Assembly: GCA_038851075.1 (NCBI GenBank)
Contig: JAWCLG010000002.1
Location: forward strand, 32,001 to 96,000
DNA from: Candidatus Hadarchaeales archaeon
Lineage (GTDB): Archaea > Hadarchaeota > Hadarchaeia > Hadarchaeales > Hadarchaeaceae
DNA length: 64,000 nucleotides
Direction of reading: 5' to 3'
Notes under the pieces: generated by a model
Databases searched by the model: none
The model's input: only the letters and a program-made list of their open reading frames with translations
Told to the model about the DNA's origin: nothing
Made by a program: the position numbers and the translations under genes
Shown here: piece by piece, positions 39,276 to 61,248 of the stretch
Position numbering within the stretch: position 1 is the first letter of the stretch
Layout: every line of letters starts with the position of its first letter

Positions 39276-40128
39276 TCTTTATGAGATGCGTGCCGTCGCA
39301 GGTACCCCCGGTGTTGAGGTGTGGCAGGCCCTCCCTGCACGATGAGAACGTGACACCAGTTTCAAGGCAGGCGGCCCTGACAGAACGCATGAGATCCTCT
39401 CTAATTTTCTTAGGCAGGTACCATCCGCGTCTTTTCTCTCCTTTGTTGAAGTACAGGTCCCGTAGCTTTAGCGCCTCATCAGGAAAAGCGGATGAGAATC
39501 TACGCCATCCATCGAGCCTTGGTTTGAATGTGGATGCAGTTACATGAGAAACACCGGCTTCGGAGGCAACCTCAACTATCTCCCTTACCTCGTCATCATT
39601 GACGAATGGAATTATCGGATCGAGCCGTAGAGAAGTTGGCACACGTTTAGAGAGAGTTTTGATAGTGGCCAGCCTTAATGATGGCTTAGGTGCACCTGGT
39701 TCTAGCCTGCGGGCCAGTGAGTCATCAATAGTTGTGACGGTGAAACTTACAACGCATGGAATTTTTTTAAGCACGTCGAAATCACGAGCCACAATGTTTG
39801 ATTTCGTAATTATCTGTACCCTGCATCCCTTTTTAGAGATGATCTCGAGACATTTTCTTGTGAGCCCGAGTTTTGCTTCAACTGGGGGATACGGGTCCGA
39901 ACTGTTTGACATGCTTATTATGGTATTTGAATCCATTTTTTCGATATCACGTTCTACCTTAGAAATCAGGTCCTTTTTTTCTCTTGCCTCGAATGCATTC
40001 GGTATATATGAGGAGATATAGCAGTAAACGCACGAGTGGGAGCACCCGGTATATGGATTCAGACCGTATTTTTTGGGACAGGTACAGAGGGGGTCTTTCC
40101 AAGGATCAAACTCTCTAACTACTGCCAT
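39268..40128 (-). CDS. Radical SAM protein, SPL/COG1533-like
   Basis: FDPW...LCTCP.KY.LNPYTGCSHSCVYCY, SSDPYP, LEPGAP....RL, CREG.......CDG; start trimmed to ATG 40128. Confidence 0.85.
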   Translation of the reverse strand: MAVVREFDPWKDPLCTCPKKYGLNPYTGCSHSCVYCYISSYIPNAFEAREKKDLISKVERDIEKMDSNTIISMSNSSDPYPPVEAKLGLTRKCLEIISKKGCRVQIITKSNIVARDFDVLKKIPCVVSFTVTTIDDSLARRLEPGAPKPSLRLATIKTLSKRVPTSLRLDPIIPFVNDDEVREIVEVASEAGVSHVTASTFKPRLDGWRRFSSAFPDEALKLRDLYFNKGEKRRGWYLPKKIREDLMRSVRAACLETGVTFSSCREGLPHLNTGGTCDGTHLIKTT

Positions 40129-40148
40129 TTTCTCAGAAAAACGATAAC

Positions 40149-40424
40149 ACGCGCCGAGATAAAGGCCCCCACATCCCTCCAGACCCCGGGCGATGTAGCC
40201 CAGCCGAACCGCCAAGGGCAGCCCGCCGAACCACATCGTTCCGACCTTTTCAGATCGTGTGGTTACCCTTTCGAGTTACCACGCCGCGGCCCTGAGGAGA
40301 CTCCGAACAAGTCTTGTCAGCCTGCTGTTCAGAACACCGCAGATCGGCCAATCTGCAGTGCCCCTACCAGTGGGATCCACCAAGACCCATTCTAGAGACC
40401 TTCCGGATCGCCCTCTCGGCGCGT
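40149..40424 (-). ncRNA. Unassigned structured RNA-like element (~276 nt)
   Basis: Perfect 11-bp terminal helix ACGCGCCGAGA/TCTCGGCGCGT, at least five G-U-rich hairpins (two with GAAA loops) on the minus strand, BRE/TATA-like motif upstream and T-run downstream. Confidence 0.65.
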
Positions 40425-40526
40425 TTTTTACTCTATCTTCTTGGTTAAAAATTTTCCGTTGTGTATCCCTGTTCACAAAGGGTTAAATATGGGTCTCCAC
40501 TAATCTCAAAAAACGGGAGGAGCCTC

Positions 40527-40664
40527 ATGCCAAGGTGCTGCCCCTCTTGCTATTTGTATGATGAATGCGAAAAAAGGGGAGAGTGCTGCGAGGAATGCGA
40601 TTTTTACAGCAGGGGCAAGTGCATGTTAATGGACAAGGAATCTTATGGAATACTCGACAAATAA
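40527..40664 (+). CDS. Cys-rich microprotein (45 aa, 8 Cys)
   Basis: MPRCCPSCYLYDECEKRGECCEECDFYSRGKC...; strong GGAGGAG SD upstream. Confidence 0.65.
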   Translation: MPRCCPSCYLYDECEKRGECCEECDFYSRGKCMLMDKESYGILDK

Positions 40665-40713
40665 CCAGAGGGCTAGGTTAATTAGATAGGTTAAATATGT
40701 GAGGTGGGGGAGC

Positions 40714-41262
40714 ATGTCTTTGGATCCATTCGATGAGGACTTTTTCAAATATTTCTTCAAACGTTTCCGAGAGATAGAGAGAGAATTTCAGGAATTCGAA
40801 AAGAGATTTCAGATCGATCTTAGAGAATTTGAAAGAACGCCTGGGGTAAAGGGGTTCAAAATAGAGATAAGGGACACTGGGAAAGGAAGGCCCGAGGTAA
40901 AGGTTTCTAGATTCGGAGAGCCGCAGAAGATCAAGGTGGAAAAACCAGCTGCGGTTCTTGAAAATAAAAGAAAAATCGTTGAAGAAAAAAGAATCAGGCC
41001 GGTCAAAAAGATGCTTGATACAAATGTGTGCAAAATTGACAGACCGAACGAAGTTGTCATAACTATGCAAGCTCCTGAGGTGAAAAAGGAGGACGTTGAC
41101 GTGAGAATAGTCGGGAGCACTGCCGAGATTATAGCAAGAAAACGGACCGGGGAAGCTTACTTCTGTACGGTCGAAATACCTAGCGACGTTGTGACGGACG
41201 AAATAAAAAAATCCTTTAAAGGGGACATATTGATTGTCACAATTCCACGACGCAAGCTCTAA
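40714..41262 (+). CDS. Small heat-shock protein (Hsp20/alpha-crystallin)
   Basis: DPFDEDFF N-terminus, GF.I......G.PEV...FG, PEVKKEDV.V, FKGDIL.VTIP. Confidence 0.8.
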   Translation: MSLDPFDEDFFKYFFKRFREIEREFQEFEKRFQIDLREFERTPGVKGFKIEIRDTGKGRPEVKVSRFGEPQKIKVEKPAAVLENKRKIVEEKRIRPVKKMLDTNVCKIDRPNEVVITMQAPEVKKEDVDVRIVGSTAEIIARKRTGEAYFCTVEIPSDVVTDEIKKSFKGDILIVTIPRRKL

Positions 41263-41322
41263 ATGCTCCCTGATTCTTCGGAAAGATATAACAATGGAAA
41301 CCGACGTGTAGGAGGGGTGCTC

Positions 41323-42519
41323 TTGAAATATGTTATAGTGGTCGGGGACGGAATGTCTGATTATCCAGTACAGAAAATCGGGGGGAAGACACCGCTTCAA
41401 GTTGCGCATAAGCCGAATATGGACTGGATCGCCTACAACGGAAAAAGCGGACTTCTAAGGACAATACCCAAGGGAACAGATCCCGGCTCTGACATAGCAA
41501 TAATGTCTATTTTGGGGTACGACCCGAAAAGGTTTCATACCGGAAGGGGGCCAATAGAGGCCGCAGCGCTTGGGATAAAGCTAGATGGGGGAGCCGTTGC
41601 CTTCAGGTGTAATCTGATAACAGCTGAGAACGGAATTATAAAAGATTACAGTGGCGGCCACATAACCACGAAGGAGGCAAAAAAACTTTTGGATGCTATC
41701 TCCAAAAAGTACGGAAATATCGGGGAGTTCCACGTGGGGCTCAGTTACAGAAACATCTTTGTCCTAAAAAATGCACTTTTCGAAGCTGTAAAAATAAAGA
41801 CCACCCCGCCACACCATGCAGTTGGGGACAAAGTCCTTGATAAACTGGCTTCGCCTAAGAAAAACAAAATTGCGCAGTTGATAAACGAGATGATGCTTGA
41901 TTCAAAAAATATACTTTCAAATCATCCTGTGAACATACTTAGAGTCAAAAAAGGTCAGAACCCCGCCAACATGATATGGTTGTGGGGACAGGGAGGAAGG
42001 CCGGACATGCCAAGTATGAAGGAGAAATATGGCCTTGACGGTTCAGTTATATCCGCAGTTATGGTCGTGAAAGGTGTCGGCGCCCTTGCCGGGCTGGATG
42101 CTCCAGAGGTACCTGGTGCAACAGGGTACTATGACACAAACTATAGCAACAAGGCAAGATATGCTTTGAAGGTCCTAAAGAAAAGGAACTTTGTGGTAGT
42201 CCATGTGGAAGCTCCTGACGAGGCAGGACACGAGGGCGATTTGGACGAAAAAATAAGGGCGATAGAAAACATAGATTCCAAAATTGTAGGAAAAATACTT
42301 GACGGCATCGGGGACGAGGATTTTAAAATAGCTGTGATGGCTGATCATCCGACCCCTGTGGAGGTGAGAAGGCATACGTCAGATCCAGTACCGTTTTCGG
42401 TGGCATCGTCTACCAGCAGGGGAGACGGACTCAAATGTTATGATGAGGAATCCGCTAAAAAAGGATCTTTAGGGCTAATGATGGGTCCAATGTTTATCAA
42501 AAAAATGATTGAAATTTGA
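41323..42519 (+). CDS. apgM: Cofactor-independent phosphoglycerate mutase family (ApgM / proposed homoserine kinase)
   Basis: GDGMSD.P....GGKTPL.VA.KP.MD, PGSD.A..S.LGYDP, HVEAPDEAGH.GD, ADHPTP. Confidence 0.9.
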   Translation: MKYVIVVGDGMSDYPVQKIGGKTPLQVAHKPNMDWIAYNGKSGLLRTIPKGTDPGSDIAIMSILGYDPKRFHTGRGPIEAAALGIKLDGGAVAFRCNLITAENGIIKDYSGGHITTKEAKKLLDAISKKYGNIGEFHVGLSYRNIFVLKNALFEAVKIKTTPPHHAVGDKVLDKLASPKKNKIAQLINEMMLDSKNILSNHPVNILRVKKGQNPANMIWLWGQGGRPDMPSMKEKYGLDGSVISAVMVVKGVGALAGLDAPEVPGATGYYDTNYSNKARYALKVLKKRNFVVVHVEAPDEAGHEGDLDEKIRAIENIDSKIVGKILDGIGDEDFKIAVMADHPTPVEVRRHTSDPVPFSVASSTSRGDGLKCYDEESAKKGSLGLMMGPMFIKKMIEI

Positions 42520-61119: not shown

Positions 61120-61248
61120 GGGGCTGTGGTGTAGCTTGGTATCACGGCAGGCTCCAGTGGATGATGTGGGTCTTCTGACTGATGGATGATGACCCACTGG
61201 AGCCGAAGAGACCTGCAAACCCGGGTTCAAATCCTGGCAGCCCCACCA
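61120..61248 (+). tRNA. tRNA-Trp(CCA) with 53-nt intron at 37/38
   Basis: GGGGCTG/CAGCCCC acceptor stem, GCAGG-CT-CCA-G|intron 61158-61210|A-CCTGC, GTTCAAATC, ACCA end. Confidence 0.93.
61158..61210 (+). ncRNA. Box C/D guide RNA embedded in the tRNA-Trp intron
   Basis: ATGATG (C), CTGA (D'), ATGATGA (C'), CCGA (D); guides GGGTCTT and CCACTGGAG are complementary to the host pre-tRNA. Confidence 0.8.

Follow-up and report, generated by a model that had tools for sequence, protein, structure and literature searches.

The window, a 64,000-nt stretch of DNA, belongs to a Hadarchaeota genome (G000; 1.01 Mb, 29 contigs, 88% complete) and carries on its minus strand a structured RNA encoded between a small cysteine-rich open reading frame (ORF) and a radical SAM gene. 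The G+C content of the RNA locus is 57–59%, as against 40–50% in its surroundings, and the modelled precursor is flanked by promoter-like and terminator-like signals:

40446..40458, minus strand: BRE/TATA-like box, CGGAA AAUUUUUA, its 3' end 22 nt upstream of where the terminal helix begins
40150..40423, minus strand: modelled precursor transcript, C40423 to G40150, 274 nt, made up of leader, circle and trailer
40137..40141, minus strand: oligo-T run, a likely archaeal terminator, 9 nt past the helix

Both signals had been pointed out in an earlier note on this DNA, and their position is conserved across 31 loci: an A/T-rich box following GAAAG-like purines ends about 20–24 nt before the helix in 31/31, and a run of 3–7 T lies within ~15 nt after the helix in most (both judged by eye). 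That note's description of the sequence is borne out overall by direct inspection of the minus strand from 40150 to 40423, including the perfect 11-bp pairing of the two ends (A40424–A40414 with U40159–U40149), if the outermost A-U pair is counted.

The gene order around the RNA is conserved and comprises homoserine dehydrogenase, an ACT protein, phosphoglycerate mutase (at some loci), a CS/Hsp20-like protein and a small ORF with eight cysteines, followed, divergently from the latter, by the RNA, the radical SAM gene (at some loci), Ogg and a primase-like gene. The eight-cysteine ORF (40527–40664, plus strand; 45 aa, MPRCCPSC...ECCEECDFY...GKC) lies behind a GGAGG sequence, is 47–71% identical across the family loci examined, RNA-less genomes included, and falls into no Pfam family. 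The adjacent 187-aa protein (40699–41262, plus strand), the 'Hsp20' of the earlier note, has a weak PIH1_CS-like match of 17.6 bits, below the cut-off, and 37 of 46 family genomes have the CS/Hsp20-like gene; a 243-aa minus-strand ORF overlapping it (40678–41409) is probably spurious. The CS/Hsp20-like neighbour and the eight-cysteine ORF were considered as protein partners of the RNA and rejected, since both also occur in RNA-less genomes and neither tracks the RNA.

A fold supported by covariation

The minus strand folds with a minimum free energy of -153.9 kcal/mol (z -8.14), which none of 100 shuffles matched; the plus strand folds more weakly (-97.4, z -3.48). BLASTN returned a single match for the element in the host genome and one full-length match in each of 22 of the 36 other genomes of the same family (69–91% identity), and a first covariance model was built from 23 sequences. 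The host precursor (40150..40423, minus strand) matches the covariance model at 231.4 bits, spanning model positions 1–284.

Covariation among these homologues strongly supports the structured RNA. RNAalifold on the MAFFT alignment of the 23 sequences yields 87 pairs, 43 of them with compensatory changes. Among 33 model-aligned homologues, 97.2% of the cells are paired and 54/87 pairs are compensatory, a result repeated in 41 metagenome copies with 97.7% and 30/87, respectively; none of 500 shuffles reached any measure in either set, and slid controls were 36–48% paired for the 33 homologues and 35–48% for the metagenome copies. The 33- and 41-sequence alignments were fitted to the covariance model and are thus biased in its favour, a bias of which the MAFFT-based counts are free. 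The structured RNA is real.

The circle is modelled as three arms, namely a junction-bearing hairpin (S0, described below), an irregular arm with a nearly invariant core (D1) and an arm with a three-way junction (D2):

40305..40392, minus strand: arm D1, a long irregular hairpin, helices 4–7 of the consensus
40175..40298, minus strand: arm D2, a stem into a three-way junction with hairpins A, B and C, helices 8–14 of the consensus
40259–40282, minus strand: hairpin A, GUGGUAACUC-GAAA-GGGUAACCAC, its loop mostly GNRA among homologues
40242–40257, minus strand: hairpin B, GAUCU-GAAA-AGGUC
40192–40237, minus strand: hairpin C, the long CGAUGUGG.../...CUACAUCG stem with an A-rich loop

The covariation-supported consensus keeps four of the hairpins drawn in the earlier note, namely A, B, C and the CACUGCAGAUU/GAUCUGCGGUG hairpin, which forms the tip of D1. 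It drops the proposed UCUGAACAG/UUGUUCGGA pairing and instead places CUGAACAG opposite GGAUCCCACUGG and UUGUUC opposite GAAUGGG. In D1, helices 4–7 have compensatory changes in 11/12, 2/7, 6/7 and 3/3 pairs, and the nearly invariant core consists of GUGGAUCCCACUGGUA at 40365–40380 opposite CUGAACAGCAGGCUGA at 40317–40332. The apical loop of D1 (40344–40351) contains GGCC, which is there in 31 of 33 homologues. In hairpin C, a run of G-U pairs is invariant in 31–32 of 32 distinct sequences. A search for pseudoknots by all-against-all column covariation gave nothing usable, the clade signal being dominant.

Several smaller features were observed in the arms. In one member (L050, genome G036) the apical loop of D1 carries AGCU in place of GGCC, two substitutions that preserve its self-complementarity, and the sister genome G026 still has GGCC. 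By eye, D1 also contains a loop-E-like GUA/GAA internal loop, and inspection of the internal loops by eye showed no K-turn geometry in any of them. The hairpin C strands GUGGUUCGGCGGGCU and GGCGGUUCGGCUGGGCU are near-direct repeats of one another.

The bulge-helix-bulge motif and the circular form

[quoted passage not shown] The closing stem is a canonical BHB, with a 10-bp outer helix, a 4-bp helix and two 3-nt bulges, following the definition of a 4-bp helix between two 3-nt bulges on opposite strands given in sections of PMC4090602 and PMC7714728. The elements of the motif and the product are as follows:

40414..40423, minus strand: outer helix, 5' strand, CGCGCCGAGA, pairs with 40150–40159
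40150..40159, minus strand: outer helix, 3' strand, UCUCGGCGCG, pairs with 40414–40423
40410..40413, minus strand: central 4-bp helix H, 5' strand GGGC, pairs with GCCU at 40163–40166
40163..40166, minus strand: helix H, 3' strand GCCU, which would become part of S0 once the circle has formed
40407..40409, minus strand: 5' bulge, G40409 A40408 U40407, predicted cut after the second base, U40407 being the first base of the circle
40160..40162, minus strand: 3' bulge, U40162 U40161 A40160, predicted cut after the second base, U40161 being the last base of the circle
40161..40407, minus strand: mature circular RNA, 247 nt, with 40407 joined to 40161 in RNA-library contigs

The motif is maintained throughout the family. 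The outer helix is paired in 99.5% of the cells of the MAFFT alignment (22 distinct sequences), with compensatory changes in 3 of 9 pairs, and helix H in 97.7%, with compensatory changes in all 4 pairs (variants GGGC/GCCC, GAGC/GCUC, GGUC/GGCC and AGGU/ACCU). The 5' bulge measures 3 nt in 30/33 homologues and the 3' bulge in 33/33, and co-folding of the termini gives, by our reading, the outer helix, H and the 3-nt 3' bulge together in 27/33. Of the two flanking helices of a full hBHBh' motif, the inner one is weak (2–4 bp, often with one bulged base), and its CCGG is invariant and so shows no covariation. The predicted cutting positions follow from tRNA precursors: in the tRNA BHB, the 4-bp helix takes in the first two bases of the anticodon, according to the relevant passage of PMC4090602, and with bases 34–35 so placed, the 37/38 cut of tRNA falls, by our derivation, after the second base of the bulge.

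Metatranscriptome data show the circular joint. In two runs of one study, RNA-library contigs at the locus are confined to 40161–40407, with 40407 joined to 40161; the flanks have no RNA-contig cover, which is no proof that the neighbouring genes are silent. The first run yielded a 277-nt contig (2 mismatches) that reads from 40345 to 40161 and then from 40407 to 40316, its ends overlapping by 30 nt, and crosses the joint, a step that 'goes back 247', at a depth of 17.5. The second run yielded a variant sequence with the identical joint at a depth of 99.6, and the 22 letters between the two pieces of its contig are the variant's version of 40161–40182. The position of the joint leaves no ambiguity and agrees, to the nucleotide, with the predicted cuts behind the second nucleotide of either bulge. 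In the DNA run X1, contigs extend without a break over both borders (39700–40180 and 40266–40900). The consensus-type junction sequence has no match in 241 million metagenome records, where 41 colinear copies occur; as a control on DNA, this search covers the consensus type and not the host genome's own variant. The evidence for the circle thus consists of assembled contigs from two runs of a single study, and contigs cannot show ends or levels. On this evidence, the mature form is very probably a circle made through the BHB.

Were the RNA instead, as pictured in the earlier note, a stand-alone linear molecule held closed by its terminal stem, the joint would be an artefact of the library or the assembly. 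The great stability and conservation of the closing stem agree with this explanation, as does the origin of all circle evidence in the contigs of one study. We nevertheless consider it improbable, since the RNA contigs end at 40161 and 40407, inside the stem, and exclude the outer helix, since two sequence variants have the identical joint, and since that joint matches both bulges of a conserved BHB to the base. Assembly with 31-letter words turns a circle of this size into a contig of 247 + 30 = 277 nt, which is the length found.

Another explanation retains the circle and takes it to be an intron. The start codon of the radical SAM gene (40128) lies on the same strand 21 nt past the helix, and an ortholog is adjacent to the RNA in 18 of the 32 RNA-bearing genomes, so that the element could be a BHB intron in the 5' untranslated region (5'UTR) of this gene, with the spliced leader as the product and the circle as a by-product or cis-regulator. 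There is a precedent in the BHB intron in the 5'UTR of HVO_1309 of Haloferax, as the pertinent section of PMC7714728 describes. However, the RNA and the gene are found apart from each other. The ortholog lies on another contig in one RNA-bearing genome and was not found in 13, at least 10 loci have a convergent Ogg or the next gene directly after the RNA, and six of the 14 RNA-less genomes have the ortholog with nothing above 6.8 bits upstream when the covariance-model filters were switched off. Where gene and RNA adjoin, their spacer varies between 20 and 184 nt, and the T-run comes directly after the helix. Moreover, conservation and covariation lie within the circle and not in the flanks, which are without any RNA contig. 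Within one genus, the eight-cysteine ORF and the radical SAM gene are separated by 89 nt without the RNA in G010 and by ~547 nt in G023, where the spacer holds a divergent copy of 67.8 bits. We consider the intron reading improbable. The distribution of the ortholog also speaks against a riboswitch-like leader of the radical SAM gene, the one of the earlier note's two interpretations that did not stand; its other interpretation, a novel stand-alone ncRNA, holds, in agreement with the promoter-like box and T-run of the RNA, its covariation and the family searches and copy number given below.

Relation to known RNA families and distribution

A search of the whole window against Rfam 15 at gathering thresholds found only 3 tRNAs. 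At E values up to 10, the locus itself gave five noise matches among 4227 families, the best being DUF3800-VI (23.5 bits, cut-off 35), and two other members of the family gave one noise match each; across the three, the noise also included miRNA and lncRNA models. The signal recognition particle (SRP) RNA model (RF01857, gathering score 96.5 bits) did not match the locus even at E up to 10, nor did the RNase P RNA models (RF00373 and RF02357). The earlier note's reading of the RNA as neither of these is upheld by the canonical RNAs on other contigs of the host genome, the SRP RNA at G000:C10:12374-12702 (127.6 bits) and the RNase P RNA at G000:C12:21352-21639 (208 bits); a search of this genome for type T RNase P was negative. 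A long-range pairing suspected to be P4-like, as in RNase P, was abandoned in view of the canonical copy elsewhere, and corresponds to H/S0. A box C/D sRNA, the commonest circular sRNA of archaea, characterised by C (RUGAUGA) and D (CUGA) boxes in a K-turn, was likewise rejected, the loop of hairpin B being UGAAAA in the host and UGAUG-like only in some other members.

Full-length canonical SRP and RNase P RNAs in the same genome also argue against the locus encoding a circularly permuted or very divergent paralogue of an RNA of SRP or RNase P type. Such a paralogue would share the gene design of the permuted Thermoproteus SRP RNA (as described in part of PMC4731332), and covariance models may fail to recognise an RNA whose order is permuted. 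Here the ends of the gene break only one hairpin loop, so that most of the RNA is contiguous for an Rfam search, yet three members had no local match to the 4227 families at E up to 10, and the element has no sequence similarity to the host's own SRP or RNase P RNA. A permuted or divergent paralogue is accordingly very improbable.

Within one Hadarchaeota family, the covariance model detects the RNA in 32 of 46 genomes, 8 of the 15 high-quality ones among them, and in 11 of 12 genera; it is sparse in genus g11 (1/8) and genus g10 (1/4). The RNA is not essential to these archaea, because 14/46 family genomes are without it and two genera lack it. Each RNA-bearing genome has it at a single locus (32/32). 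A mobile or repeated, MITE-like element with a structured transcript, to which the presence or absence of the RNA at one site in G023 and G010 might point, is a negligible prospect given one copy per genome, a neighbourhood that is always the same, no flanking repeats seen and compensatory changes typical of functional RNA.

Searches beyond these genomes support a narrow range. There was no covariance-model match in 20 genomes of the phylum's other families, and a second model (R2) with lax filters gave one 16-bit noise match in five genomes of other Hadarchaeota families and nothing in 38 genomes of another archaeal phylum, an empty answer that proves little. With lax filters, model R1 gave noise (19.3 and 11 bits) in five RNA-less family genomes, and the divergent copy of G023 had no match in its own genus. 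Scanning one genome per GTDB species for a motif of the RNA gave 64 loci; the model confirmed 28, and the other 36, all bacterial, are chance. The confirmed loci are labelled Hadarchaeota or Hadesarchaea with two exceptions, a 'Hodarchaeaceae' label on a contig that is that of G004 and a 277.7-bit copy (L101) whose 3.7-kb contig comes from a genome with a 'Bathyarchaeota' label. The only copy in g11 (L131, G069:C155:2010-2283) is without hairpin A, and its contig, 2.4 kb long, belongs to a genome with 4% contamination. Both L131 and L101 may be binning errors. The same motif in 241 million metagenome records gave 71 loci, 41 of them confirmed and all of these colinear.

Maturation, known circles and possible function

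Based on these results, we propose with good confidence that the locus is an independent, single-copy gene for a new structured ncRNA that matures into a covalently closed circle of 247 nt. Transcription would start ~22–26 nt downstream of the BRE/TATA box and stop at the oligo-T run, and the 16-nt leader would pair with the trailer to form the canonical BHB. We infer that the archaeal tRNA-splicing endonuclease EndA would cut after the second base of each bulge and that the ligase RtcB would join U40161 to U40407. After ligation, the 3' strand of H would re-pair with AAGGUC inside the circle to give hairpin S0, with the junction in its loop:

40397..40402, minus strand: predicted 5' strand of S0, AAGGUC, pairing with 40162–40167 in the circle only, with the junction in the loop U/UCCGG (stroke at the joint)

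Folded as circles, 27 of 33 homologues give at least 4 junction-spanning pairs. S0 is paired in 84% of cells with compensatory changes in 4 of 7 pairs, 5–7 of 500 shuffles reach two of the measures, and it is weaker than H. The two alternative helices suggest a division of roles in which H would serve processing and S0 the mature form.

RtcB is encoded in the host genome (601.9 bits, on C8). EndA was not found in the host's own 88%-complete assembly; the sister genome encodes it, as do 40 of 46 family genomes, among them all 15 of high quality. In this family it is a single frame of about 180–200 aa, a size that we take to be of the homotetrameric type. According to PMC5829648, non-canonical motifs are cut only by heterotetrameric (alpha-beta)2 and epsilon2 endonucleases. 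A presumed homotetrameric EndA would fit the strict 3-4-3 geometry of the motif. Besides the RtcB gene on C8, a pair of short stretches resembling RtcB (45.8 and 40.6 bits; positions 1–56 and 49–105 of the model) lie ~1.4 kb apart at G000:C3:103233-104972, the first containing TAG and TAA; they may be an interrupted or decayed second copy.

To our knowledge, the circles described so far from the archaeal tRNA-splicing machinery are introns, intermediates of rRNA and, in a single case, a rearranged SRP RNA. The last of these, the permuted circular SRP RNA of Thermoproteus tenax, is the closest known case, with the same gene design and pathway as far as the consulted portion of Plagens et al. 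2015 (PMC4731332) describes them. There, a TATA box lies ~26 nt before the start, a leader of 23 nt (~16 nt in the Hadarchaeota RNA) and the trailer form a BHB between them, as in the Hadarchaeota RNA, and cutting by the tRNA-splicing endonuclease followed by ligation yields a circle that is stable and functional and has its junction in the loop of a hairpin; the permuted gene had escaped standard searches. The T. tenax circle is a rearranged SRP RNA in a genome with no canonical copy, whereas the Hadarchaeota circle matches no family and coexists with canonical SRP and RNase P RNAs. The endonucleases differ as well, that of T. tenax being a relaxed heterotetramer (same portion of PMC4731332), in contrast to the single EndA frame and strict 3-4-3 motif of the Hadarchaeota family.

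Other archaeal circles resemble this RNA in part. Precursor 16S and 23S rRNAs are likewise excised and circularised through a closing helix of leader and trailer with a BHB, in the account given in sections of PMC7714728; those circles are ribosomal, whereas this one measures 247 nt and has its own promoter. Excised tRNA introns and the HVO_1309 5'UTR intron of Haloferax also circularise in a BHB-dependent manner (Schwarz et al. 2020, PMC7714728, same sections). What those transcripts yield as their product is the exons; the Hadarchaeota circle is flanked only by a 16-nt leader and a short trailer, and the downstream gene is often absent. As the alignments read, selection acts on the circle, unlike in these introns. 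A circRNA-seq survey of Sulfolobus reported circular archaeal ncRNAs, some of unknown function (Danan et al. 2012, PMC3326292); in the parts of that survey available to us, the tabulated circles are 26–163 nt long and often represent a segment of a linear RNA or its minor form, with BHB unmentioned, whereas the Hadarchaeota circle is the whole product of a dedicated gene with a defined BHB. A literature search found no description of this RNA, and the one paper containing both 'Hadarchaeota' and 'circular RNA' (PMC12918454) concerns, in its available text, 23S rRNA. This is a real, new RNA family: it is made in a manner already known, and what is new is the RNA itself and its purpose.

With regard to function, D1 with its irregular but invariant core, the loops of GNRA or A-rich type, the circularity and the RNA cover of the circle only lead us to infer a stable, nuclease-resistant scaffold or regulator that would act in trans by binding a protein or itself. 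Complex conserved folds with multi-way junctions, GNRA or A-rich loops and a narrow range are also features of the large structured ncRNAs OLE, ROOL, GOLLD, raiA and Hgc; these are linear, mostly bacterial and all in Rfam, and none matched the Hadarchaeota RNA. A search of the host's own genome for antisense targets gave a longest complement of 15 nt, of which we estimate ~0.5 to be expected by chance, at sites scattered inside ORFs. The self-complementary GGCC (31/33) or AGCU (one member) in the loop of D1 would fit a kissing-loop dimer. More tentatively, and with slightly less than even confidence, we suggest a new class of dedicated archaeal circRNA that would be abundant, promoter-driven, equipped with a built-in helix switch and either self-associating or the core of a ribonucleoprotein (RNP). 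In the switch as modelled for such a class, GCYC would pair with GRGC first, forming the BHB, and then with AGRGCC, closing the circle.

Hadarchaeota would thus possess a gene apparently dedicated to a mid-sized, elaborately folded circle outside the known RNA families, a gene that a family of uncultivated archaea from the subsurface and hot springs has retained throughout its history. It offers a natural case for asking what circularity buys an ncRNA, how one strand may serve both the processing and the mature helix, and what role a new archaeal RNP might play. An Rfam family could be seeded with the covariance model (33 + 41 sequences), and the strict BHB cassette is a natural template for designed circular RNAs.

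Elsewhere in the window, a tRNA-Trp(CCA) gene missed by ARAGORN (61120–61245, plus strand) contains a 53-nt intron with the C/D-box-like motifs GAUGAUG, CUGA and UGAUGA. A 9-bp stretch complementary to the anticodon loop gives it a guide-like duplex in place of a BHB, which made this tRNA unsuitable as a control for BHB motifs within the genome, and it resembles the guide-bearing tRNA-Trp introns of other archaea.
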